Virus record (IMG/VR): IMGVR_UViG_3300032265_002475
Location: 5 to 64,004 of that record
Length of the DNA stretch: 64,000 nt
From: a virus
Direction: 5' to 3' (one strand)
Shown: in pieces, positions 30,185 to 64,000 of the stretch
Layout of the letters: each line of letters starts with the position of its first letter
Position numbering within the stretch: position 1 is the first letter of the stretch
Position numbers and translations under genes: made by a program
Notes under the pieces: generated by a model
What the model saw: the letters and a program-made list of their open reading frames with translations, nothing else
Databases searched by the model: none
What the model was told of the DNA's origin: nothing

Positions 30185-32038
30185 TTATAAAGGAGAAATT
30201 TTACCACGAATATCATTATTTAGATATTTTACTTCAAATATGCTTGGATCTAAAGAAGGATAAATGATATTATTATTAGTTGCTCCTACTATGTTATAAG
30301 AATATTGTGAATATCCATTATTAACTCCACTTTTATTTGAGATTGTTATACTTTTAACAGTTTGAACACCGTTAATTTGATCTAATAAAATATATAAATC
30401 TCTTAACATTATTGGTTGGTTAATTTGCCAATTATCTATATTAAAATAATTTTGTAAAGTATTTATACAATTAGTTAATACATCATTATTATTATAATTA
30501 GGATAAACTATAATTTCAAAATCAACACCAATATTAATAATAAAAGCATCTTTTATATTTACACTATCATTTATTATTCGATATTGTGATAAATATGTTG
30601 ATAAATTTTGTTTTAAACTATTAGAAGCTACTGCTAAGTTTTTATTTAAATCAAAAGTTAAAACATATAAATCTAAAATAGATTTACTTTCCCCAGAAGA
30701 TAAAGTATTAATTTTAACAGGTTCAATATATGCTTTTGAAATAGTTCCATATTTAGGATCCATACTTAATGCTCTAACTAAATAATCATCTGATGTTACA
30801 TTTCTTAATTGAGTATTATAATTAGCTATAGAATTTTGTCTTATATTTTCTACTGTATCTCCATTACTACCTCCAGAAGCAGCATTTGGATTTGTAACAG
30901 CTAATGAACTTATTACTGAATTTGCTATTCCTGTTGTTAAATTATTATTTAAAAATGTAATATTACCATTTATTTGAGTTAAAGTATTAGAAGAAACATT
31001 TGTATTTACTCCACCGCCTGTTAAATATCTAATAGTTAAAGTAGTATTAGATGGAGCTATACCATAAGTTCCAGTAAACATAAAATTAGCTGGACTGTAC
31101 GCTACTCCCATTTTACTTATTCTTGAAGGTAAACCTATACCTACATTATCTGAATTAGGTACTATTTCTTCGTCGCTATCAGTTGCTGAACCTGCTCCAA
31201 ATTGTAATTGTAAATTAGTACTATTTAAAAATCTAGTTACAAAACGTCTTTGTACTTTTTTTAATTTTAAAAGATATGGAGTATCACCACCATTTAAAGT
31301 ATTATTAGGATCATTAATGTTAGTATTTTTAACATCACCATAAACCATTTCTTGAGCTAAATACGGTACTTCATACCATAAATTTCCATCACTATCAGTT
31401 ATATCTAATATACCAATTATATTATTATCATTGATATTTACTGTATTAAAGCGTTGAGGGCTTCCAAAAGTAAATGTTGTAGTATTAATAGCAGAAGAAA
31501 TAGCTTGTCTTGTCTTTTTTAATAAATAATAAGATGGATTATTACCTGATAATTGATAAACAGTTACTGTTGTAGGATCACTTGAACTTGAAATTGAAAA
31601 ATCAACAGTATCTTGTATTAAAAATGAAACTGGTGATGTAGTATTAGTATTAATAGCAGCATTTGGTGCTATGTATAAAGCATAATTAAAATCAGGAATA
31701 TAATTTACCCCTACTGAAGGGACAATTTGATAAATATCAATATCAGTTATAGCTACTCCTGTTACTTTAGGTTTATACCCAAACATATACGCTAATTCAA
31801 ACAAATTATTTGTTTGTCTCGCATATTGTAAAAAATTTTCTTGAAATTGATTATCTAAATAAAAAGATAAAACATCACCTACATAAGCAGCCATTTCCAT
31901 AAACATCATACCTGGACTTTCTTCACTAAAATCTGTGTATGTTGTTGGAAAATATGTTTGAGCATAATTTATAAGATTTGCTCTGAACTCACTAAAATCT
32001 TTATTTATATATTTTATTTGTCTGTTTGTAGTTGCCAT
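30185..32038 (-). CDS. baseplate wedge protein, gp6 / baseplate-J-like
   Basis: N-terminal FRANLINYAQTYFPTTYTDFSEESPGMMFMEMAAYVGDVLSFYLD pattern typical of baseplate J family; directly after gp25-like gene. Confidence 0.55.
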   Translation of the reverse strand: MATTNRQIKYINKDFSEFRANLINYAQTYFPTTYTDFSEESPGMMFMEMAAYVGDVLSFYLDNQFQENFLQYARQTNNLFELAYMFGYKPKVTGVAITDIDIYQIVPSVGVNYIPDFNYALYIAPNAAINTNTTSPVSFLIQDTVDFSISSSSDPTTVTVYQLSGNNPSYYLLKKTRQAISSAINTTTFTFGSPQRFNTVNINDNNIIGILDITDSDGNLWYEVPYLAQEMVYGDVKNTNINDPNNTLNGGDTPYLLKLKKVQRRFVTRFLNSTNLQLQFGAGSATDSDEEIVPNSDNVGIGLPSRISKMGVAYSPANFMFTGTYGIAPSNTTLTIRYLTGGGVNTNVSSNTLTQINGNITFLNNNLTTGIANSVISSLAVTNPNAASGGSNGDTVENIRQNSIANYNTQLRNVTSDDYLVRALSMDPKYGTISKAYIEPVKINTLSSGESKSILDLYVLTFDLNKNLAVASNSLKQNLSTYLSQYRIINDSVNIKDAFIINIGVDFEIIVYPNYNNNDVLTNCINTLQNYFNIDNWQINQPIMLRDLYILLDQINGVQTVKSITISNKSGVNNGYSQYSYNIVGATNNNIIYPSLDPSIFEVKYLNNDIRGKISPL

Positions 32039-38792: not shown

Positions 38793-39212
38793 CTATTCAT
38801 CATCTGGAAATAACTTATGAGGTATTTTCTTATTAAACTTCATTATTTTTTTAACTTCCTTAGGCTCGTCTATAACATAATATAAAGCTTCTTTACTTTC
38901 TTCCATTGCTTTTGTAGTACGATGATTACCATCTATTAAAAGTAACTCAGATAAATCTGTTTCTGGATTTTTAAAGGCAACAACTATACCAATAGGCTTA
39001 GAATAATCCATTTTAAGATTTTTAATCTTTTCAGGATCTACACTAGTAAATAATGAACTTGTTAAACGTATTTTACTTGGATTTAATTTATAGATTTTAT
39101 ATTTTATACCATCTGATTTAATTAAATCGTATGCTTTATCTACGTCAAAAATATAACGACCATGGTAAGCTTTAAAAATTTCTTCTTTAAGTATATTTAT
39201 TAATTTTATCAT
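38793..39212 (-). CDS. MIKL-leader protein with ParB/Srx-like nuclease domain
   Basis: MIKLINILKEEI; LLIDGNHRTTKA resembles the ParB DGHHR motif. Confidence 0.5.
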   Translation of the reverse strand: MIKLINILKEEIFKAYHGRYIFDVDKAYDLIKSDGIKYKIYKLNPSKIRLTSSLFTSVDPEKIKNLKMDYSKPIGIVVAFKNPETDLSELLLIDGNHRTTKAMEESKEALYYVIDEPKEVKKIMKFNKKIPHKLFPDDE

Positions 39213-40210
39213 TTGATTAATTCAGTTTTATCTTTATCATAATATAATTTTTTTAGCTTAAGACATTTAGAAATGTCTAAACTAATTAATTGATTACGTT
39301 CACAATTTAAACGTTCTAAATTAGGACATTTTGAAATGTCTAAAGTAGTTAATTGGTTATTAGCACAATATAATGTTTCTAAATTAGGACAATTAGAAAC
39401 ATCTAAAGTAGTTAATTGATTAGAATAACAGTATAATTCTTCTAAATTAGGTAAACGACCCAATCTAAGAGTAGTTAATTTATTACCACAACACCATATT
39501 TTTTCTACTCTAGGGTCATTAACTACTAAAGTTTTTAAATTTTTATCACTACAATATAATTTATTATTTTCATCTAACTTAAATTTAATTCTTTCACCAT
39601 CTACCGTAATACCGTAAATTGATTGATTAGTGGAAATAGGTTCCAATTCAGTTAATATAGTTTCTTTAATTAATTGGATTTTATCTTTATCGTAATTTAA
39701 ATATTCTAAATTAGAACAGTTTGAAACGTCTAAACTAGTTAATTGGTTATTAGCACACTTTAATATTTGTAAATTAGGACATTTAGAAATGTCTAAACTA
39801 GTTAATTTATTAGAATAACAGTCTAAATAATATAAATTGGGTAATATACCTAATTTTAGAGTAGTTAACTGATTTCTCCAACAAGATAATTTTACTAAAT
39901 TAGGCAAATTACCTAATTTTAGAGTAGTTAATTGATTATTTTCACAATTTAAAGCTTCTAAATTAGGCAAATTACCTAATTTTAGAGTAGTTAATTGATT
40001 TCCAAAGCAATTTATTTTTGTTACTCGTAAGTCATTAACTACTAGAGTTTTTAAATTTTTAAACTCACATTCTAAATTATTATATTTATTTAATTTAAAT
40101 TTAATCTTTTCACCATCTACCGTAATACCGTAAATTTGACTAGACAAGGCATATTCATACTCAGCTAAAATTTGTTCTCTAATAAGTTGTTTTAGTTCGT
40201 GTTTTTTCAT
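39209..40210 (-). CDS. MKK-leader leucine-rich-repeat protein (two fused leader-LRR cassettes)
   Basis: MKKHELKQLIREQIL; repeats NQLTTLKLGNLPNL.L.C..N; internal second leader IKETILTELEPISTNQSIYGITVDG. Confidence 0.7.
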   Translation of the reverse strand: MKKHELKQLIREQILAEYEYALSSQIYGITVDGEKIKFKLNKYNNLECEFKNLKTLVVNDLRVTKINCFGNQLTTLKLGNLPNLEALNCENNQLTTLKLGNLPNLVKLSCWRNQLTTLKLGILPNLYYLDCYSNKLTSLDISKCPNLQILKCANNQLTSLDVSNCSNLEYLNYDKDKIQLIKETILTELEPISTNQSIYGITVDGERIKFKLDENNKLYCSDKNLKTLVVNDPRVEKIWCCGNKLTTLRLGRLPNLEELYCYSNQLTTLDVSNCPNLETLYCANNQLTTLDISKCPNLERLNCERNQLISLDISKCLKLKKLYYDKDKTELIK

Positions 40211-43160: not shown

Positions 43161-44510
43161 TTATATTATTTCTATTCCTAAATTTTCAAGAGCTTTTTCT
43201 AAATCATTAACATAGGAATTACCTAGTCTTTCTATCTGTTTTACATATGGTCCTTCACCATCCATAGCTTTTAGTATATCGTATCCATTTGCTATATTTA
43301 ATCCATATACTTTAAGAGCTAATTGTAGTAAAAATAACCATTCTTCTGTACCTGTTTCTATTTCACCATCTTCTATAATTTCTGGATATTCTTCTCTAAT
43401 CGCTTGTTCTATTTGGTGAGATTTATCTCTATTAGAAATTGGTTGTAATTCTGTCAAAGGTTTACTAAATTTTTGTTTTTTATAATCTGAAATTATACTT
43501 ATAATTTTATTAATAAGAAGTTCTACATTAATCCCTACAGAATGTTCATCTCCAGGATTTTTAGGATTTTCTCTCCTATCTATATCTAAAAATTCATTAA
43601 AATCATCTCCTGGTACTCCTGGCTTACCTTTTAATTCATTATCAAAAATAGGATCATAAAGGCAATCTACTAAATCATCATCCCAATGATGATCAAATTC
43701 GGTCCAATTATAATTAGGTCTATCTTCCTCAGGATCACCTAATAAATCTGCATTTTCGTCAATTATGTAAAAATACTTTTCATTAGGTATTCTTTTTAAA
43801 AGCATTTTAAAACTATTACGAGGAACTGCTTGTAACTCAGCTAAAATTTGTTCTTTGATGAGTTGGGTTTTATCTTTGTTATAAATAATACTTTTTGGTT
43901 CTAAATTAGGACATTTAGAAACGTCTAAACTAGTTAACTGATTATTAACACAATTTAACCAAACTAATTTAGGACATTTTGAAAGATCTAAACTAGTTAA
44001 TTGATTATTTTTACAATTTAATGTTTTTAAATTAGGGCATTTTGAAATGTCTAAACTAGTTAATTTATTAACTTGACAATCTAAAAGTGTTAAATTAGGA
44101 CATTTTGAAATATTTAAACTCTTTAATTGATTATTAGCACAATTTAACTCTTTTAAATTAGGACATTTAGAAACGTCTAAACTAGTTAACTGATTATCAT
44201 GACACCATAAATATTCTAAATTAGGTAGACTACCTAGTTTAAGAGTAGTTAATTGGTTGTGATAACAATATATTCCTTTTACTTGTGGATTATTTACTAT
44301 TAAAGTTTTTAACTCTCCAACCCATTCAGATAATTTATCTTCATCCTGATATAAATCATATGTGTAATTTAATATACCATCTTCATCTAACTCTAATTTA
44401 ATCTTTTCACCATTTACAGTAATACCGTAAATTTGTTTATTAACAGCAACAGGTTCTAACTCAGCTAAAATTTGTTCTTTTATAAGTTGTTTTAACTCAG
44501 ATTGTTTCAT
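43161..44510 (-). CDS. MKK-leader LRR protein fused in frame to a second leader plus C-terminal domain homologous to 44516-44866 and 48165-48404
   Basis: ...IIYNKDKTQLIKEQILAELQAVPRNSFKMLLKRIPNEKYFYIIDENADL... then YPEIIEDGEIETGTEEW. Confidence 0.65.
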   Translation of the reverse strand: MKQSELKQLIKEQILAELEPVAVNKQIYGITVNGEKIKLELDEDGILNYTYDLYQDEDKLSEWVGELKTLIVNNPQVKGIYCYHNQLTTLKLGSLPNLEYLWCHDNQLTSLDVSKCPNLKELNCANNQLKSLNISKCPNLTLLDCQVNKLTSLDISKCPNLKTLNCKNNQLTSLDLSKCPKLVWLNCVNNQLTSLDVSKCPNLEPKSIIYNKDKTQLIKEQILAELQAVPRNSFKMLLKRIPNEKYFYIIDENADLLGDPEEDRPNYNWTEFDHHWDDDLVDCLYDPIFDNELKGKPGVPGDDFNEFLDIDRRENPKNPGDEHSVGINVELLINKIISIISDYKKQKFSKPLTELQPISNRDKSHQIEQAIREEYPEIIEDGEIETGTEEWLFLLQLALKVYGLNIANGYDILKAMDGEGPYVKQIERLGNSYVNDLEKALENLGIEII

Positions 44511-52690: not shown

Positions 52691-53557
52691 TTAACAACAA
52701 TCAACAACATCGTTACCTATTTTTTCAGGATTTGTTACTTCCATTTCAGGTTCTATTTTTTCTTTTGTAATTTTTCCATAATAAATGCTATTATTTGTTA
52801 ATTGATAACTAAATCTAGCATTAGTATGCCCGTTTCTATTTTTAGAAAACATCATATATGTTTCATTTAATTCTTTATCAAGTTTCACTTCACATACAGC
52901 ATCAACTAAATGTTTTAGTTTATTACTACCTACAGCATCACCAGCTTTTGTTTGTTGTTGTATAAGTAAAAATGATGTAAATTTACCACCTATATTTTCA
53001 CCTGAATTATGTTTTACACATAAATCAACTAACCAAGATTCCGCTGTTTTTCGGTCCCAACGATTATCATCGCGTACACTATCTAATACTTCCGCTATTG
53101 AATCAATTAGTATTAGATCATATCCTTTATTTAATATTTGTTCTACAACATCTTTTGCGTTGTATTGAATATAATCTGTCATAAATAACGTTTCAACAAT
53201 ACCAAATTGTGGAAATCGTTGTGTATATTTAAACATTTGCTTTTTACCCATTTCACCACTTATAAATAAACATTTATATTCTTTTTTATTTTGAATACCT
53301 GCTATTAAATCTAACATTAATGTTGTTTTACCTATTCCTGGATCTCCAGGAACCATAATGTTAGTAGCACATGGTGTTCCACCTTCGTAACTAATAAGTT
53401 CATCTAATGGTAATCCACTTTTCATAGTATTTAACATTCGTGGATCAATTTCTAATTGATTTAGTTTCATTACTTCACTAAATTCAATAATTGATGGTAT
53501 TTGTGGTACCATTGGTTGGCTAAGGTGTGGTCTTCCTGGTTTACGTTGTTCTTCCAT
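52691..53557 (-). CDS. RecA-fold P-loop ATPase (Sak4 / DnaB-C-terminal-like)
   Basis: Walker A GDPGIGKTT, Walker B DLILIDSI. Confidence 0.5.
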   Translation of the reverse strand: MEEQRKPGRPHLSQPMVPQIPSIIEFSEVMKLNQLEIDPRMLNTMKSGLPLDELISYEGGTPCATNIMVPGDPGIGKTTLMLDLIAGIQNKKEYKCLFISGEMGKKQMFKYTQRFPQFGIVETLFMTDYIQYNAKDVVEQILNKGYDLILIDSIAEVLDSVRDDNRWDRKTAESWLVDLCVKHNSGENIGGKFTSFLLIQQQTKAGDAVGSNKLKHLVDAVCEVKLDKELNETYMMFSKNRNGHTNARFSYQLTNNSIYYGKITKEKIEPEMEVTNPEKIGNDVVDCC

Positions 53558-53578: not shown

Positions 53579-53619
53579 TTAATAACATAAAGATAAAAAG
53601 GAAAGTCTGAAAAGCCAAA
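53579..53619 (-). promoter_or_regulatory. early promoter element
   Basis: motif. Confidence 0.55.
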
Positions 53620-54878: not shown

Positions 54879-55715
54879 TTACTTAATTGGTAAATTAAAA
54901 TTAATACCATTACCCATCTGATATTGTGGTAATACACCATTCCACTTCTCAATTGCTATTTGTTGTAACAACATAGGTGTGATAGCTGTCTGTTTCAGTC
55001 TATATGATTCAGCTTGAGCTTTAGCTGTTGCTAACATTGCATCTGCATCACCTTGCGCTGTTGCTACTTTAATTTTAGCTTGAGCTTCTGCTGTTTTTAC
55101 TTGATTTTCAGCCATTAAAGCTGCTTGAACTGCATTATTCTTAGCTATGATTGCATTCTTAAATGATTCCGGATAGCCTAAATTAGACGTTAATTGGCTG
55201 ATTGTAAAACCTTCCTTAGTTAAATTTGAATCTAATTTAGCACGCACCTTTATCTCAAATTCTTGACGATTAGACACTAAATCTTCGGCAGTATAAGCAT
55301 TGGCAGTCATACGAAATGCATCATAAATAGTTGTTTTCATAAAACCATCCTCAATGTCTTCTAAATCTCTACGATATTTAGCAAAGATATAAGGTACTTG
55401 TTCCCTTTTAACTGAATAATTCACAATAGGTGATACATGAAATTCACTACCATCCTTTGAGTTTACTACAAATGAGTTGCCATCTTTATATTCTTTGTGT
55501 TGCATAAAAGTTGGAAATTCATAAATCTTTGTTGAGATTGGATTGTAAAATACCCACCCTGTACACTCCGTGATACCATCAATACCTTTGTTGGTTCCAT
55601 ACAAATTTACTTTAATACCTACATGACCAGCGTCAATACGCTCACACGAATTAAATACCATAATTGTAAACATAAATGCTACAATTGCTCCTAAGACTAA
55701 TTTTACTTTGTTCAT
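54879..55715 (-). CDS. SPFH / band-7 (prohibitin-stomatin-like) membrane protein
   Basis: N-terminal TM; Ala/Gln/Lys-rich C-terminal helix AEAQAKIKVATAQGDADAMLATAKAQAESYRLKQTA typical of SPFH. Confidence 0.55.
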   Translation of the reverse strand: MNKVKLVLGAIVAFMFTIMVFNSCERIDAGHVGIKVNLYGTNKGIDGITECTGWVFYNPISTKIYEFPTFMQHKEYKDGNSFVVNSKDGSEFHVSPIVNYSVKREQVPYIFAKYRRDLEDIEDGFMKTTIYDAFRMTANAYTAEDLVSNRQEFEIKVRAKLDSNLTKEGFTISQLTSNLGYPESFKNAIIAKNNAVQAALMAENQVKTAEAQAKIKVATAQGDADAMLATAKAQAESYRLKQTAITPMLLQQIAIEKWNGVLPQYQMGNGINFNLPIK

Positions 55716-56500: not shown

Positions 56501-56602
56501 TAGTCAGGACAGGATTCGAACCTGTAATGATGCGTGTCTGTCCGTACATCAACGTTAGGGTTGCGACCCCTTCTCGCGTCTTGCCAATTCCGCCACCTGA
56601 CT
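56501..56602 (-). tRNA. tRNA-like gene, 101 nt, class-II-like (Leu-type D arm); anticodon uncertain (candidate loop GUCGCAA)
   Basis: rc AGTCAGG-TG-GCGGAATTGGCAAGACGCG...ACAGG-TTCGAAT-CCTGT-CCTGACT-A: perfect acceptor, canonical T-arm, D-arm nearly identical to E. coli tRNA-Leu; too long for a standard tRNA. Confidence 0.5.
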
Positions 56603-56780
56603 ATTTTACTCTTATTCTCCTTTCTAATGAAAAATAAAAATCCCGTTATTATGGTTATGACTGCCATACTAAAGGTAGCTGTTTTTGCAGCTGAAAAAGT
56701 CATCAATTACTATTTCAGGTAAGAACTGAAATACTCTTTTTTCTTTTGTTTTTATTTTGTGTATCATCTATATTATTTAT

Positions 56781-56816
56781 AATATAAAGATAAAAAGGAA
56801 AATCTGAAAAGCCAAA
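56781..56816 (-). promoter_or_regulatory. early promoter element upstream of tRNA-like gene 56501-56602
   Basis: motif. Confidence 0.55.
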
Positions 56817-58633: not shown

Positions 58634-58809
58634 TTCTTTATTGGTTTAGGTGGTTCTGCCATTTTGCTTCTTTCTTCTTTTATAGAGCAAGTTTTACCAT
58701 CATATTCACAACAGCATCTTGCACCCATTCCAAATAATGAACGCTTAATATTTTTATTAGCGCACCAAGCACCATTATCATTAAATTTACAATTTATTTT
58801 TAATATCAT
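58630..58809 (-). CDS. small Cys-rich protein (59 aa), not in ORF track
   Basis: ATG 58807-58809 overlaps upstream stop, TGA overlaps downstream ATG (ATGA coupling at both ends); seven Cys. Confidence 0.4.
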   Translation of the reverse strand: MILKINCKFNDNGAWCANKNIKRSLFGMGARCCCEYDGKTCSIKEERSKMAEPPKPIKK

Positions 58810-59240
58810 TTAATTAAATTTTTAAGACAATATTCAAAAGCAGAATTTAAAGCTTCTTGTGGATTATTAAAATAACTTTTATCACTATTTTGGATTTCTA
58901 TACTTTCTTGTTCTATATTTTTTAAAGTAGATACGTTGGCAGTAAAGTAATTTTTAAAAGAAATATTACTATAATATCCATCAATAGTAACCCAAATACC
59001 ATGTTTCTCTAACAACCAATTTTGAACACTTTGATATAATGGAATACCAATAAAATCTTCATGTAATTTTTGACTAATAATATCTTTAATAGTTAAAGTA
59101 TCATTTTCATCATCTGTACAACCAAATCTCCACATTGTATGACCATGTGGATTACCTTCTTTAAGGCAAGGTTCATCAAAACCTAATCTTTTAAGTTCTA
59201 AAGCGATTTTATAAGGAACAAAGTTATCTTTTACATTCAT
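58806..59240 (-). CDS. hypothetical protein
   Basis: ORF. Confidence 0.5.
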   Translation of the reverse strand: MNVKDNFVPYKIALELKRLGFDEPCLKEGNPHGHTMWRFGCTDDENDTLTIKDIISQKLHEDFIGIPLYQSVQNWLLEKHGIWVTIDGYYSNISFKNYFTANVSTLKNIEQESIEIQNSDKSYFNNPQEALNSAFEYCLKNLIK

Positions 59241-59590: not shown

Positions 59591-60130
59591 TTATTTGAAA
59601 AAATTAATTATTTTATCTTTAACACCGTTTTGTTTAATACCTTCCTGCGATGAAGGAGTCCAAACAAAATTAGTCAAACCCCAATCCCTATAAAATTCAC
59701 CATATGAACTATGTTTAACGTGAAGACCCATGTGTAAATCATCAACAGCAACCCAATGTGTTACTTCTGGGTGTTGCTTTAACCATTCAAGTATTTCAAG
59801 TGAACGTTGTTGCTCTAAATCAAATGTTTTATCGTATGGGTATCCTTCTTGAATTGGAACAGATGAAGGTGTATAGTCAATTGGTGACTTTTTAACATTT
59901 CTCATCTTATACAATTCCTGCATTTGATCTAGTGTAGTGTGATATTTCCAATCCGAGCTAACTACTATTTCACAATCTGTTTCTTCAATGATTTCATTTA
60001 ACACCTTGATTGCTTTATCATTGAATCTATCAAATTCACTGTCAAGTCCTTCCTTGTTTTTAAATCTACTACCCCATTCGGATGCTAAACATATAACACC
60101 ATCATGGTCTAAAAATATTATTTTTTTCAT
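59591..60130 (-). CDS. HAD-like hydrolase (putative phosphatase)
   Basis: IIFLDHDGVI resembles HAD motif I DxDx(T/V); IVVSSD motif II-like. Confidence 0.35.
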   Translation of the reverse strand: MKKIIFLDHDGVICLASEWGSRFKNKEGLDSEFDRFNDKAIKVLNEIIEETDCEIVVSSDWKYHTTLDQMQELYKMRNVKKSPIDYTPSSVPIQEGYPYDKTFDLEQQRSLEILEWLKQHPEVTHWVAVDDLHMGLHVKHSSYGEFYRDWGLTNFVWTPSSQEGIKQNGVKDKIINFFK

Positions 60131-60131
60131 G

Positions 60132-60166
60132 TTATAAAAATAAAAAAGAAAGCCTGAAAAGCCAAA
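60132..60166 (-). promoter_or_regulatory. early promoter element
   Basis: motif. Confidence 0.5.
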
Positions 60167-60174
60167 CTTTTAAA

Positions 60175-60846
60175 TTAATTTAATCCAAATGAAATCGGTT
60201 TATGAGCATAATTGTATTGTTCATTTAATGAAGAAGCGTTGATGAAGATAGTGTTGATGTTGTGCATAATATTAGGACTATCTACAAACCCATATCCAGT
60301 ATGGATGTGACCACAGCAATGTATTTTTGGTCGTACTCTCATAATTGCGTTATACAAATCAACACAACCTAAATGATCTCCTCTACGACTATCTACATCA
60401 TCTAATATTCCAAATACTGGACCGTGAGTTAAGAGTATATCTAATCCGGTAGGAATTTTATTCCAATGTTGTTGTATGTCTTCACCTGGATCAGCATTGA
60501 ATGCCCAATCGTTAAATCTAGGTTGCCAAGGTGAACCATAAATCTTCAATCCATCAAGTTCAATAAATGAATCTTGTATATAGGTTATGTTTGGAAATGC
60601 ACTTAAAATTTCTTTTATTTCATTGGGTCTTTCTTGAAATCCAAAGTCGTGATTACCAGCTATGAATACTTTGTGAGCGAAGTTGTCAAGACTATTAAAC
60701 CACTTACAAAATTCTTTTATTTCGTGATTGTATCCCATAGATGAAATGTCTCCAGCATGAAATAAAAAATCACCACCATGATCTAAATCTCTAGTTAGTT
60801 GTCTATGTTTGTTGTGTGTGTCTGATATAAATGTTAGTTGTTTCAT
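60175..60846 (-). CDS. calcineurin-like metallophosphoesterase
   Basis: ISDTH, HAGDIS, AGNHDFG, LLTHGP, CCGHIHTGYG. Confidence 0.7.
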   Translation of the reverse strand: MKQLTFISDTHNKHRQLTRDLDHGGDFLFHAGDISSMGYNHEIKEFCKWFNSLDNFAHKVFIAGNHDFGFQERPNEIKEILSAFPNITYIQDSFIELDGLKIYGSPWQPRFNDWAFNADPGEDIQQHWNKIPTGLDILLTHGPVFGILDDVDSRRGDHLGCVDLYNAIMRVRPKIHCCGHIHTGYGFVDSPNIMHNINTIFINASSLNEQYNYAHKPISFGLN

Positions 60847-60851
60847 AATTG

Positions 60852-61085
60852 TTAAATTTCGTTATCTAAATAAATAGTCGGTGGATCAAATGATACTATA
60901 GCTGAATAATAAACATCATTCATTAGTAAATCTACTTTTTTAAGTAGAGGCTCTAATTCAGAAATATCATTTATCTCTATAGAATAAGCACCTGGTTCAC
61001 CTTTCCACATATCTTCCCATTTAGCACCTATTTCTTTTAAAACTTTATCGTTTACCCTTTGATTAAAATCTATTTGAAATTTCAT
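60852..61085 (-). CDS. small hypothetical protein
   Basis: ORF. Confidence 0.45.
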   Translation of the reverse strand: MKFQIDFNQRVNDKVLKEIGAKWEDMWKGEPGAYSIEINDISELEPLLKKVDLLMNDVYYSAIVSFDPPTIYLDNEI

Positions 61086-61087
61086 AA

Positions 61088-61318
61088 TTATTTAAATTTT
61101 AATGTATCACCAATTTTATAATTACCTATTGGCATCCTAAATTCTACATCACTTTTATTAAAACCTGCTTTATCAATATAATCTAAAGAAAATAAAGCAG
61201 TTTTAGTATTCACATCATAATCACTAATATTAATAATTACAAAAGGATATTTAGGATTAACTTGATTACAAGCTGCAAATACAATAGCTATTAAAGCTAA
61301 TAATGTTAATTTTTTCAT
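61088..61318 (-). CDS. small lipoprotein
   Basis: MKKLTLLALIAIVFAAC lipobox. Confidence 0.5.
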   Translation of the reverse strand: MKKLTLLALIAIVFAACNQVNPKYPFVIINISDYDVNTKTALFSLDYIDKAGFNKSDVEFRMPIGNYKIGDTLKFK

Positions 61319-61587
61319 ATTTCTATTAATGTATCTTTTAATAATGTTATTGTTTTTACTTGATTAGCTATTGTTCCTGAACAAAATACTTGACCATCTT
61401 CTTCTAATTTAGGTGTACACCAATTTTGTCCTGTTATAGTATCTGTAGTATTATCATAATATTTCACTTTAATAGTCCACTTATGAGTGTAATTCTTTTC
61501 ATGTATATCTGGACCACAACTACCAAATATAAATAATAGTAAAATAGGTGTATATTTAAACCAATTTAATAATTTAGTATTTTTCAT
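61315..61587 (-). CDS. small lipoprotein
   Basis: signal peptide + FGSC lipobox. Confidence 0.5.
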   Translation of the reverse strand: MKNTKLLNWFKYTPILLLFIFGSCGPDIHEKNYTHKWTIKVKYYDNTTDTITGQNWCTPKLEEDGQVFCSGTIANQVKTITLLKDTLIEI

Positions 61588-61880
61588 TGTTTTTTGTTTA
61601 AAAAGTTTTCTGCTTTGGTGATTGTTTCTTCATTGTCTTGTGCATCGTCGGGGGCTAAAACATAATCATCGGTAATGCTTTTTACCCTTTCAGTTAATTC
61701 TCTAATCAACTCCACCGCTTCTTGCTGATGAATCTTTTTTACAATGTCGGAGTTTGCACCAAAGTTTATTGCTGAAATAATATCGTGTCTGCAATACTCA
61801 TTATCATTTGTTGCAGGACATCTATAAGGTTCAGCGTAATTTTTGATAGCTTCTTCCAATTCTTGTTCAAGGTTGTTCAT
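61584..61880 (-). CDS. hypothetical protein
   Basis: ORF. Confidence 0.45.
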   Translation of the reverse strand: MNNLEQELEEAIKNYAEPYRCPATNDNEYCRHDIISAINFGANSDIVKKIHQQEAVELIRELTERVKSITDDYVLAPDDAQDNEETITKAENFLNKKQ

Positions 61881-61881
61881 G

Positions 61882-62475
61882 TTATTGTAATTTTAAAAAT
61901 TTATGCAATTCTGATAATAAAAACATTGCCCTGTCTTTATCTAATATTATTTTAGTTTCTTGATAAGTCCCAGCACCATAAATTGTTATCCTATCTTCTT
62001 CTATCTTTGAAGGAATTATATTAACCTTTTTTTCTTCCTTCGGCAGCCATTTGATTTGCAAAATGTTGTTGACCATCCAATAGTCTATACCATTTGTATT
62101 GGTACTTATATCAAACTTCGGCAACTCCTTCCATTTATTCCAATAATCCACAAACTCTTTCACTCTTTCTTCTGAAAAATAGCAGTTAGGTGTGATTGTT
62201 GGGGAGTTAGTGGTGATTACTTTTTTAAGATATTTTCCACTTGTTGTAAAGTCTTCTAACAAAAAACATATAGAATTATTTCTAACATCAAACATGGGTT
62301 CTCCTTTATTTACTATTAAAAATTCTTCATCGCTGCAAAGAACGAGTAGTTTGTTTTGATAAAATCCTGTGTTAATTTTAGCAGTTTCTTCGCAATAAAG
62401 TAGATTTTCTATACCCTTGTCTAATCTAATATTACTTGGCTCGTTGGTGTCTATAAGTTTTAAAAATGCGTTCAT
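61882..62475 (-). CDS. hypothetical protein
   Basis: ORF. Confidence 0.5.
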   Translation of the reverse strand: MNAFLKLIDTNEPSNIRLDKGIENLLYCEETAKINTGFYQNKLLVLCSDEEFLIVNKGEPMFDVRNNSICFLLEDFTTSGKYLKKVITTNSPTITPNCYFSEERVKEFVDYWNKWKELPKFDISTNTNGIDYWMVNNILQIKWLPKEEKKVNIIPSKIEEDRITIYGAGTYQETKIILDKDRAMFLLSELHKFLKLQ

Positions 62476-63110
62476 TGTTGTTTGTTTTTTTTATTTAATT
62501 CGTGATGATCAATTGGTAAAGTTAATTTAGCTATTGGTTGATTGTTCATAATGCTCAATATCTCTTGCAAATCAATTGGTTTTAAGTTATTACCTTCACA
62601 ACCAACATCCATTGATTTACCTCCATGTAATCTTTGGTCAGGCATTAAGTGTACGTGTCCATGTAAGTGGATTACACCATTATTCATTCCATTCCAACTT
62701 GCAATTGGATAGTGCATACAAACAAATCTTTGTTTTTCAACACTTGTTTTATTGTGTTCTATACGGACATCTAAATACAAATATTCGTTAATTGATTTAA
62801 ACAAGGATTGAATATTTTCTTTGTTGTTTTGTATGTGGTGATCGTGATTACCTAATACTAAATGTATGTTTTTACAAACTAACCGTTCTCTGAATTCTCT
62901 TATTTTATTAAAACCACCAAACGACCAATCACCTAAATGAATTAATATATCATCTTCTTTAACACAATCGTTTAAATTTTCTACCAATGTGTTATTCATA
63001 GTTTCTAACGAGTCAAACTGCCTTGTTAGTCTTTCGGCATTAGTCCATTTAGTAGTTGTTGAACAAATGTTGCTATGAGAATAATGTGTTAAGTATCCGA
63101 GGTAAACCAT
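62472..63110 (-). CDS. calcineurin-like metallophosphoesterase (second copy)
   Basis: LIHLGDWSFGG, VLGNHDHH, HGHVH. Confidence 0.6.
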   Translation of the reverse strand: MVYLGYLTHYSHSNICSTTTKWTNAERLTRQFDSLETMNNTLVENLNDCVKEDDILIHLGDWSFGGFNKIREFRERLVCKNIHLVLGNHDHHIQNNKENIQSLFKSINEYLYLDVRIEHNKTSVEKQRFVCMHYPIASWNGMNNGVIHLHGHVHLMPDQRLHGGKSMDVGCEGNNLKPIDLQEILSIMNNQPIAKLTLPIDHHELNKKNKQQ

Positions 63111-63160
63111 AATCTGGTATCCTCGGATAAATTTATTTTAAGTGTTGACATTTTATTATT

Positions 63161-63201
63161 TTAATAATATAAAGATAAAAAGAAAAATCTGAAAAGCCAA
63201 A
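63161..63201 (-). promoter_or_regulatory. early promoter element
   Basis: motif. Confidence 0.55.
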
Positions 63202-63216
63202 TTATCTTTTAAAATA

Positions 63217-64000
63217 TCAATGTGAATCACCTACATCGTGTTTTTCACCATAGATTAAGTATTCGGGGTTAATACACTTTGCAATTTTATTTCTTTCACC
63301 TGAAAAATGTTTAATAACGATTCCTTCATGAGGTACTTTTGTACCTTCAATAAAATTGTTGAATGTGTACTTATCTTGAATTTCTTGAGACCAATTACCT
63401 TCAAACAGTATTGGTACGTAAGGTAACTCTAACATATAAATAATTAAAGTTTGAGCCATAGGAGAACCTTTATACACACCATTAATTGAAATATCAAATG
63501 CTGCAAATTCTATATCCTTTAAACCATAATCATAATTCTTTTGAATACCTGCTCCATAAATTTCTCCATATAACACTACACCTGAACCAACTTCTTCTGG
63601 GGTATATCCTTCACGCAACATATTCCATAAACGCTCTTTGATATTATATTTAGCATCAATTTCATACCAAACATTTGTATCATAATAACCTTGAGAATCA
63701 GAACCTTTTTCAACATTGTGAGATCCAACTACAAACTCATACTCAACAAATTCATCGGCAAAGTTGAAGAACATTTTAATTCTATCCCAAACAGATAATT
63801 TATTTTTCTTTACAATTCCAAATCGAGCATTGGTACCATGTAACTTTCTAGTTATTTCAACTACATCATCTTCTGTAAAGATTCCAGGAACATTTTTAAT
63901 GTTTGGAAACTTATAGTAAATGTGAAAGTTAGGATTGTCTTGCCATCTAATCTTACGACCTGACGCTAATTGAACTTGTTTAACTGGTGGTTCATATTTA
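63217..64000 (-). CDS. RNA ligase, Rnl2-like nucleotidyltransferase (5' end beyond window)
   Basis: reading frame stays open to the window edge; motif I RKLHGTN upstream of the listed Met, LYGEIYG (III), PHEGIVIK (IV), NKIAKCINPE (V). Confidence 0.55.
   Translation of the reverse strand, partial: KYEPPVKQVQLASGRKIRWQDNPNFHIYYKFPNIKNVPGIFTEDDVVEITRKLHGTNARFGIVKKNKLSVWDRIKMFFNFADEFVEYEFVVGSHNVEKGSDSQGYYDTNVWYEIDAKYNIKERLWNMLREGYTPEEVGSGVVLYGEIYGAGIQKNYDYGLKDIEFAAFDISINGVYKGSPMAQTLIIYMLELPYVPILFEGNWSQEIQDKYTFNNFIEGTKVPHEGIVIKHFSGERNKIAKCINPEYLIYGEKHDVGDSH

Follow-up and report, generated by a model that had tools for sequence, protein, structure and literature searches.

Sets of phage RNA repair genes of the type considered here were reportedly described by Burroughs and Aravind in 2016. 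Jumbo phages combine tRNA arrays with ATP-dependent RNA ligases, polynucleotide kinases and HAD phosphatases, including stand-alone Swiss Army Knife (SAK) proteins, for the repair of RNA; calcineurin-like domains used for RNA repair are rarer and occur in a small number of these phages (PMC7824862). Here, we describe a set of this kind at the end of a 64,000-nucleotide stretch of viral DNA (IMG/VR record IMGVR_UViG_3300032265_002475, positions 5 to 64,004), referred to below as the window. The window carries genes for an RNA ligase, two calcineurin-like metallophosphoesterases (MPE1 and MPE2) and a HAD phosphatase. Together with a kinase gene encoded past its end, these probably make up a phage RNA healing-and-sealing tool-kit, laid out as two adjacent transcription units beside a tRNA array. 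A preliminary description of the window had proposed an RNA end-healing and sealing set beside tRNA genes, and profile searches, structure prediction and conserved gene neighbourhoods now support this proposal. As a well-documented example of a system type already described by comparative genomics, the set is confirmatory; the one element that is possibly unusual is a split MPE1 gene.

The locus shares with the jumbo-phage sets of Iyer et al. 2021 (PMC7824862) a tRNA array, a ligase, a kinase, a stand-alone SAK HAD protein and a calcineurin-like phosphoesterase, with a cREC gene also nearby. Particular to the present clade is that no other phosphoesterase accompanies the ligase as regularly as MPE1 (46/67 loci). 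Clostridium thermocellum Pnkp likewise unites a P-loop 5′-kinase, a binuclear metallophosphoesterase acting on 2′,3′-cyclic and 3′-phosphate ends, and an adenylyltransferase/ligase (PMC2190708). Pnkp is one fusion, however, whereas the phage has three separate small proteins; the phage ligase is of the Rnl5 type and not a Pnkp ligase domain, MPE1 has no detectable sequence relation to the lambda-phosphatase-like domain of Pnkp, and no Hen1 methyltransferase, the companion of Pnkp, was seen for the phage. Closer to home among phages, T4 Pnkp and Rnl1 repair tRNA-Lys cut by PrrC. T4 and the present phage have in common a kinase, a HAD-type 3′-phosphatase and an RNA ligase, and the kinase family can be aligned with T4 Pnk. 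Kinase and HAD domains are fused in T4, whereas here they are separate and the HAD protein is of the SAK family; T4 Rnl1 acts on anticodon loops, whereas the ligase here is predicted to be of the nick-sealing Rnl5 type.

The locus and its extension beyond the window

The ligase, phosphoesterase and HAD open reading frames (ORFs) of the preliminary description are present at the positions that it gave (Table 1), and their Pfam and PHROG matches bear it out. All genes of the set lie on the minus strand, as does every sizeable ORF between 59.3 and 64.0 kb in the ORF list. Window proteins were compared with Pfam and PHROG, and the full-length ligase also with NCBIfam and the PDB. Megablast of the 59-64 kb region against isolated phages gave no match. 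The G+C content of the window is low, at about 26%; together with a T4-like baseplate gene and the match of MPE1 to Flavobacterium phage immuto, this suggests a large myovirus of a Flavobacterium-like host as the source.

The locus continues on a 39-kb ENA scaffold (L001), the final 1791 nucleotides of which are 99.94% identical to window positions 62210-64000. L001 and the window evidently represent one phage population. Past the ligase start, L001 carries in order a 129-residue gene, a 155-residue P-loop protein, an 86-residue gene, an AAA ATPase, an RNaseH-like gene and 21 tRNA genes, among them tRNA-Thr(UGU); further on follow UvdE, the cREC gene, a SET-domain gene and an ATP-dependent DNA ligase (PF01068 and PF14743). 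The set had been described as lying near tRNA-like genes, which holds for the 21-gene array on L001, outside the window, and does not hold for the window itself, where there is one tRNA-like element only. For wider comparison, 80 ligase-bearing loci were fetched from IMG/VR and their ORFs scanned with family hidden Markov models (HMMs), giving 67 distinct loci for counting. Two relatives are referred to repeatedly: L005, the closest relative with enough sequence, whose ligase is 87% identical, and L003, a 233-kb contig.

A divergent RNA ligase of the Rnl5 family

The frame of the ligase is open from 63217 to 63999, up to the window edge. The encoded fragment matches RNA_ligase of Pfam (PF09414, E 5e-15) and PHROG 968, 'RNA ligase' (1e-27), the latter from profile position 136 of 398, so that some 120-135 residues are absent from the window. 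The complete protein (P0001, 382 residues) is encoded on L001 and is 100% identical over the 260 ligase residues of the window; it consists of an N-terminal OB module (PF21189), lying beyond the window end, and a nucleotidyltransferase domain (PF09414).

On its sequence and its predicted fold, this enzyme is assigned to the Rnl5 family (DraRnl/NgrRnl) as a divergent member. The best NCBIfam match of the full-length protein is TIGR02306 (DRB0094/DraRnl), at 107.9 bits over positions 5-339 of 341, under the trusted cut-off of 151.15; the Rnl2 model TIGR02307 gives just 25.7 bits. Thousands of relatives that are 65-93% identical were returned by protein searches, many of them labelled 'RNA ligase (TIGR02306 family)' by JGI. 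Among PDB sequences, the full-length ligase matches Naegleria NgrRnl with E 1e-14 and T4 Rnl2 with 0.025, and P0001 residues 10-130, which hold the OB module, align with NgrRnl 10-129. The fragment alone gave weak Rnl2 matches only, so it is with the full-length protein that the relationship to NgrRnl becomes visible. An AlphaFold model of the ligase (predicted local distance difference test score 74) agrees: its top 13 PDB matches are all NgrRnl, aligned over the full length with E 3e-18 to 4e-16, and REL1 and Rnl2 follow at about 1e-5 over the catalytic core only. Overall TM-scores against NgrRnl are low (0.33-0.41, root-mean-square deviation about 14 Å), a result that we put down to how the two domains are placed relative to each other in the model. 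In the fold search, the N-terminal module also resembled the tRNA-binding OB domains of Trbp111, EMAP II and PheRS beta.

The arrangement of the catalytic motifs fits the same family. Mutagenesis of DraRnl has defined the motifs TEKLHG, SK, VQIFGEVV, YEGPFDEAT, EGVVV and SVK, and its chain stops some 30 residues past motif IV (PMC1807946). The family is marked by an N-terminal OB module of about 126 residues before the nucleotidyltransferase domain. Like DraRnl and NgrRnl, the phage ligase has an OB module followed by a C-terminal nucleotidyltransferase domain, a T-x-K-L-H-G motif I with His two residues past the Lys, and motifs III, IIIa, IV and V in order; the family is its best match by both sequence and fold, and its chain also ends soon after motif IV, the stop being 35 residues on with no C-terminal domain following. 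Motif Ia, SH in place of the SK of DraRnl, is an inexact match. The phage enzyme differs in being about 22% identical to NgrRnl, in its length (382 residues, against 340 for NgrRnl chains and 342 for DraRnl) and in the position of its gene beside kinase and phosphoesterase genes, the cellular enzymes having been studied as stand-alone proteins.

The preliminary description had called the ligase Rnl2-like. That it is an RNA ligase stands, given the PF09414 match and the ordered motifs, whereas the Rnl2 label gives way to Rnl5. Rnl2 proper was rejected because the nucleotidyltransferase domain is C-terminal, nothing follows motif V and TIGR02307 scores so low. The alternative that had been raised along with the proposal, an ATP-dependent DNA ligase, was rejected as well: Pfam gives no DNA ligase match for the protein, its model matches DNA ligases I and IV at E>0.1 only, and L001 carries a separate DNA ligase gene. 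Characterised Rnl5 enzymes seal 3′-OH/5′-PO4 nicks in duplexes with an RNA 3′-OH strand (PMC4408790, PMC1807946), and are able to join RNA 3′-OH to 5′-phosphate DNA (PMC1807946).

Kinase, phosphoesterases and their linkage to the ligase

The absence of a P-loop kinase from the window had been recorded earlier, with the suggestion that one might lie upstream of position 64000. A family HMM indeed detects no homologue of the ligase-linked kinase family in the window. On the 99.94%-identical contig, the 155-residue P-loop protein (Pfam AAA_33) lies two genes upstream of the ligase, which bears out the suggestion, albeit on a separate assembly. In a profile of 23 orthologous kinases, the motifs RGLPGSGK[ST] and EAD are invariant. 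T4 Pnk is among the best solved matches of this profile (E 2e-4, positions 1-128), with PSTK, Pnkp1 and the CthPnkp kinase domain lower, and the P-loop and the invariant Asp align with K15/S16 and D35 of T4 Pnk. These E-values are weak, so the assignment of the protein as polynucleotide-kinase-like is suggestive.

Linkage of these genes is best seen in the relatives. On L003, HAD_SAK_2, MPE1, kinase and ligase form a contiguous block in this order, directly after 24 tRNA genes and a tmRNA gene, and the four proteins are 51, 57, 60 and 72% identical to those of the present phage, respectively. In L005, ligase, MPE1 and MPE2 are adjacent, and HAD_SAK_2 lies beside a DNA ligase gene. Across the 67 loci, a kinase gene is present within 10 kb of the ligase in 51 (within 2.5 kb in 45, and abutting the ligase in 24), and an MPE1-type gene in 46, if a degenerate subfamily described below is included (32 within 2.5 kb). 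MPE2 is found within the same distance in 24 loci (36%) and HAD_SAK_2 in eight (12%); at least five tRNA genes are found there in 28. Wherever kinase, MPE1, MPE2 or HAD genes occur within 10 kb, they are on the strand of the ligase. From these counts, the regular core is kinase, ligase and MPE1, with MPE2 and HAD_SAK_2 as looser companions. Of the two metallophosphoesterases named in the preliminary description, both do match Metallophos; as partners of the ligase, MPE1 proves consistent and MPE2 looser, and the ORF given for MPE1 turns out to be a truncated reading of a split gene.

MPE1 is the only consistent phosphoesterase partner of the ligase. Its ORF matches Metallophos (E 6e-6) and PHROG 547 (1e-40), and has motifs II-V intact (HLGDWSFGG, LGNHDHH, MHYP and LHGHVH). 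In orthologues of the catalytic clade, all five metal-binding motifs (DxH, GD, GNH[DE], H and GHxH) are conserved. Aquifex aq_1665 is its only solved relative, by profile (1e-12) and by fold (E 3e-8, TM 0.55-0.63). A lambda-phosphatase or CthPnkp-type domain was rejected because the profile search finds aq_1665 only.

A related subfamily of 173-179 residues has lost nearly all metal ligands, with FVTSNQQFGR for SDTHYNH, LGNF for LGDW and GEYD for GNHD (L046 2335-2850, L052 15446-15964, L057 6449-6967, L072 7222-7737, L073 1384-1902 and others). As its genes still lie beside kinase and ligase genes, these proteins may be catalytically dead phosphoesterases that bind RNA ends.

MPE2 retains all five metal-binding motifs and aligns over its whole catalytic domain (residues 6-222) with mammalian MPPED2 (PDB 3rl4, E 1.3e-43), from which it differs as a 223-residue phage protein without an N-terminal extension. 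MPPED2 is a cyclic-nucleotide phosphodiesterase. Judged by this homology, MPE2 could open 2′,3′-cyclic ends and could equally destroy cyclic-nucleotide signals. The possibility that the phosphoesterases are DNA nucleases of the SbcD/Mre11 type with an SbcC partner had been raised at the outset. For MPE1 it was rejected on a model match of E 0.1 or more (TM 0.17-0.37) and for MPE2 on its match to MPPED2; the two proteins are only 212-223 residues long, and among the large window ORFs run through PHROG, seven of ten of which had no match, none matched an SbcC family.

The HAD-like protein, noted earlier for its DxDxV motif, is indeed a stand-alone phosphatase of the HAD_SAK_2 family (PF18143, 'HAD domain in Swiss Army Knife RNA repair proteins'; E 1.7e-24, 87.2 bits against a cut-off of 27.5). 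The motifs DxDGV (FLDHDGV, 60095-60115), SS and DD are intact and are invariant in 11 orthologues; no relative was found by sequence among solved structures. In L005, the HAD_SAK_2 gene overlaps the end of the ATP-dependent DNA ligase gene (L005 14178-15864; compare L001 1-501), from which it may be that this phosphatase also serves DNA-end processing.

A 37-nucleotide promoter-like motif (TTGGCTTTTCAGATTTTTCTTTTTATCTTTATATTAT) lies in the intergenic region between ligase and MPE1. The motif (TTGGCTTTTCAGATTTTYCTTTTTATCTTTATATTAT) recurs upstream of genes elsewhere in the window and on L001, where one copy precedes the AAA-kinase-ligase unit; the number of copies expected by chance is 0. This is probably a phage promoter class that serves the units of both ligase and MPE1 as well as the tRNA-like element, and its occurrence before each unit would make ligase and MPE1 two transcription units under like regulation.

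A proposed healing-and-sealing pathway and its alternatives

From the observed family assignments, catalytic motifs, co-orientation and proximity, we infer the enzymatic activities, the order of steps and the RNA substrate of a pathway as follows. The starting point would be RNA damage, caused by a host ribotoxin (for example an anticodon nuclease) or otherwise, that leaves 2′,3′-cyclic-phosphate and 5′-OH ends. The small P-loop kinase would phosphorylate the 5′-OH, and the 3′ phosphate would be opened and removed by at least one phosphoesterase, namely MPE1 (binuclear), the aspartyl-phosphatase HAD_SAK_2 or possibly MPE2. The Rnl5 ligase, adenylylated on the Lys of TRKLHG, would then activate the 5′-phosphate and seal the 3′-OH/5′-PO4 nick with an RNA 3′-OH strand; its OB module, a tRNA-binding fold, probably helps to hold the substrate. 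The targets may be tRNAs cut by anticodon nucleases, with tRNA, rRNA and RNA-DNA hybrids all being candidates. Across a large clade of uncultured phages, the Rnl5 gene regularly occurs next to tRNA arrays together with genes for a Pnk-like kinase and a phosphoesterase, and we offer the hypothesis that Rnl5 acts as the sealing enzyme of a three-protein pathway for 2′,3′-cyclic-phosphate/5′-OH RNA breaks in phage-host conflict. For the uncharacterised aq_1665-like phosphoesterase family, the linkage also points to a candidate role.

Several findings weigh against such a tool-kit. The kinase and the tRNA array were seen on a separate, near-identical assembly and not in the window, the kinase resembles Pnk weakly (E about 1e-4), the ligase falls short of the trusted cut-off of its family, and MPE1 is disrupted in this phage, the other catalytic-clade orthologues all being intact. 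MPE2 and HAD_SAK_2 are the looser companions by the counts above, and MPPED2, the relative of MPE2, cleaves cyclic nucleotides. The sole solved relative of MPE1, aq_1665, is a protein of unknown function, and the MPE1 family is present in 978 isolated-phage records. The closest of these, from Flavobacterium phage immuto (65% identity), is encoded directly after four tRNA genes; immuto is absent from the ligase search matches and carries neither ligase nor kinase in the 9 kb flanking its MPE1 gene. Since aq_1665 is uncharacterised and the immuto gene has neither partner nearby, what points to RNA end healing by MPE1 is its synteny in this clade alone. Finally, the preferred substrate of Rnl5 enzymes is the duplex nick and not the anticodon-loop break, and their physiological role has been called uncharted (PMC5397189).

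Some of these points would sit well with a looser collection of accessory genes at a hot spot next to the tRNA array, in which ligase and kinase serve nucleic-acid metabolism (for example at RNA-primed nicks in DNA replication or repair) and the phosphoesterases degrade second messengers of defence. The close homology of MPE2 to MPPED2 would be expected here, as would the wide spread of MPE1 and its occurrence in immuto; destruction of cyclic-nucleotide signals has been proposed as a role of calcineurin-like phosphodiesterases in jumbo phages (PMC7824862), Rnl5 can join RNA 3′-OH to 5′-phosphate DNA (PMC1807946), the gene order around the ligase is fluid, and UvdE and a DNA ligase are near on L001. 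We nevertheless regard this arrangement as unlikely: genes for the kinase, MPE1 and the ligase recur side by side and in one orientation in phages with only 50-70% protein identity, the HAD protein belongs to a family defined by its RNA-repair context, and a dedicated DNA ligase is already present. The set might instead mature the phage's own tRNAs or tRNA-like RNAs, by end trimming, cyclic-phosphate removal or joining of pieces, rather than repair damage inflicted by the host. It does lie beside a tRNA array here, in L003 and in the 28 loci counted above, immuto has its MPE1 gene right after tRNA genes without a ligase, the N-terminal domain of the ligase has a tRNA-binding OB fold, and in L002, L032 and L045 tRNA-like elements lie right at the ligase start. 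Bacterial tRNA maturation normally proceeds without ligation, however; none of the tRNAs of this phage is split or intron-bearing in a way that would call for ligation, no conserved exon-like part is shared among the inner segments of the tRNA-like elements, and the ligase is found in 2/120 loci centred on such elements and the kinase in 0/120. Maturation consequently strikes us as quite improbable, and healing and sealing of broken RNA as the probable function.

The interrupted MPE1 gene

In the present phage, MPE1 is interrupted. Alignment with L005 and L003 reveals a 5-nucleotide insertion, aligned as TAACA, that separates the Thr codon from the His codon in the S-D-T-H of motif I. The minus strand reads ATG...TGG TTT ACC TCG GAT ACT TAA CAC ATT, with TAA directly after Asp-Thr, and the remainder of the gene continues in another frame, of which 212 codons are still open downstream. 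The N-terminus, with the motif-I Asp, is thereby left as a 20-codon ORF (MSTLKINLSEDTRLWFTSDT). Orthologues read ...LWFTSDTHY(N/S)H(S/A)NICS..., and S-D-T/P-H is present in every catalytic-clade orthologue examined. The MPE1 step is then either lost, with HAD_SAK_2 and/or MPE2 covering for it, or dependent on translational bypass.

The same insertion is present in L001, in L007, in L009 (a Logan contig) and in the contig encoding P0243 (ENA, another sample). L007 represents a strain with a ligase gene that is 9% divergent at the nucleotide level (synonymous divergence, dS, 0.26). The recurrence of the insertion in several assemblies and in this strain makes an assembly artefact unlikely. Exact and degenerate DNA patterns for the insertion found no match in IMG/VR or JGI metagenomes, and all known copies of the allele come from ENA and Logan assemblies.

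With good probability, the insertion has simply inactivated the gene, leaving a recent pseudogene that is tolerated because HAD_SAK_2 and/or MPE2 cover 3′-end healing. It splits motif I with a stop directly after the Asp-Thr codons, the downstream ORF is without the metal-binding Asp, and frameshift mutations are, as is well established, far commoner than programmed bypass (PMC5009743). The 5′ region of MPE1 is almost identical between the two insertion-bearing strains, so that the insertion may be recent or spread by recombination; a test of selection after the insertion is limited accordingly, as the diverged strain provides only about 150 nucleotides, nearly identical to the window. Inactivation is harder to square with an allele held in at least four assemblies, including the strain with the diverged ligase gene, with a downstream frame that stays open over its 212 codons, and with a ratio of non-synonymous to synonymous substitution rates against L005 (0.13) similar to those of neighbouring genes (ligase 0.06, MPE2 0.125, HAD 0.25).

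The layout of the insertion also suggests a second, rather doubtful, possibility, that MPE1 is expressed through a natural +5 ribosomal hop. A take-off codon ACU is followed by UAA, then by a matched landing codon ACA exactly 5 nucleotides on, and then by CAU (His); by our own enumeration, a matched landing codon with an adjacent stop, here placed in the A site, would arise in about 1 in 100-300 random 5-nucleotide insertions. On entry of UAA into the A site, peptidyl-tRNA-Thr would let go of ACU and pair anew with ACA, 5 nucleotides downstream. Made by the phage-encoded tRNA-Thr(UGU), such a hop would restore SDTHYSH exactly, as in the invariant metal-binding motif S-D-T-H-Y-x-H, and the junction of the full-length product would be a peptide spanning LWFTSDTHYSHSNICS (...FTSDTHYSH...). 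Short hops of this kind, over a stop and between matched codons, have been seen in constructs; bypass in nature is rare (PMC5009743). The layout resembles these stop-hops and the bypass of T4 gene 60 in its stop right after the take-off codon, in the matched downstream landing codon for the same tRNA (PMC5009743) and in the essential conserved motif that bypass would restore. It differs in a gap of 5 nucleotides only and in the lack of any identified nascent-peptide or stem-loop signal. If real, this would add a rare case of natural stop-hopping over a short distance, in a phage with a host of Bacteroidota type, and might set a low or regulated level of the RNA-end phosphoesterase. The small remaining probability, beyond pseudogene and bypass, falls to a truncated product.

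tRNA-like elements and other features

The tRNA-like elements have a near-invariant scaffold. This consists of an acceptor stem (AGUCAGG/CCUGACU) with A73, a D arm, which we take to be like that of tRNA-Leu, and a T arm. In place of anticodon and variable arms stands a hypervariable inner segment, with 108 distinct inserts of 30-119 nucleotides in 125 copies and an anticodon-arm-like start in just three. The exact scaffold is found on more than 120 IMG/VR contigs (L091 onward), its copies scoring 36-41 bits with the Rfam tRNA model and escaping detection by ARAGORN; it had no match among isolated phages. By the counts given above, the element travels with tRNA genes and not with repair genes, on which ground a specific partnership with the repair set was rejected. 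Intron-containing tRNAs spliced by the ligase were rejected because the inner segments share nothing, and spacer-like guides because the inserts match only other copies of the element. A decoy, a processing signal or a scaffolded small RNA are possibilities for its role.

Five small ORFs separate MPE1 from MPE2. They are absent from L005, where the two genes adjoin, and are probably an insertion outside the repair set. Two of them, at 61088-61318 and 61315-61587 (minus strand), have lipoprotein-type signal peptides (MKKLTLLALIAIVFAAC... and ...LLLFIFGSC..., respectively).

Table 1. Features of the window and of related contigs; positions refer to the window unless a contig is named.
Feature	Position	Strand	Remarks
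RNA ligase, C-terminal 260 codons (residues 123-382 of 382)	63217-64000	-	Predicted Rnl5-type, ATP-dependent
Ligase motif I, TRKLHGTN	63829-63852	-	Lys nucleophile in TRKLHG
Ligase motif III, VLYGEIYGAG	63547-63576	-	
Ligase motif IIIa, FEGNWSQE	63382-63405	-	
Ligase motif IV, EGIVIK	63310-63327	-	
Ligase motif V, IAKCINP	63265-63285	-	
37-nt promoter-like motif	63164-63200	-	Upstream of MPE1
37-nt motif, other copies	56779-56815; 53582-53618	-	
37-nt motif, copies on L001	L001 7568-7604; 11166-11202		
Orphaned MPE1 N-terminus	63089-63151	-	20-codon ORF (63092-63151) and TAA
5-nt insertion in MPE1	63087-63091	-	In motif I
MPE1, main body, aq_1665-like calcineurin-type metallophosphoesterase	62472-63110	-	ORF from internal ATG, without motif-I Asp
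Five small ORFs	60852-62475	-	197, 98, 90, 76 and 77 residues; no family match
MPE2, MPPED2-family metallophosphodiesterase	60175-60846	-	223 residues; Metallophos E 5e-13
HAD_SAK_2 phosphatase	59591-60130	-	
144-residue protein	58806-59240	-	Paralogue of the 129-residue gene between kinase and ligase on L001 (9610-9999); shared LKxLGFDEPC motif
tRNA-like element	56501-56602	-	Rfam tRNA model 36 bits; ARAGORN makes no call
tRNA-like element, further copies	L002 4155-4280, 9860-9982; L049 2701-2855, 3256-3349, 17410-17538; L038 18259-18419		Several differing copies per phage
Band_7/SPFH protein	54879-55715	-	
RecA/KaiC-like ATPase	52691-53557	-	
Leucine-rich-repeat proteins (two)	39209-40210; 43161-44510	-	
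T4-type baseplate wedge protein	30185-32038	-	

The 129- and 144-residue proteins of Table 1 belong to a family with an N-terminal LKxLGFDEPC motif and no Pfam or PHROG match, which recurs around kinase and ligase genes with up to four copies in L036, L060 and L013. A Ro/TROVE partner was looked for in the window and none was found. Among relatives, L002 (14092-14514, 13045-13405 and 18552-20198) and L003 (2695-3091) carry GOLLD RNA (256 bits), tmRNA and a Ro60/TROVE-vWA protein, which adjoin tRNA arrays and lie within 10 kb of the Rnl5 ligase.

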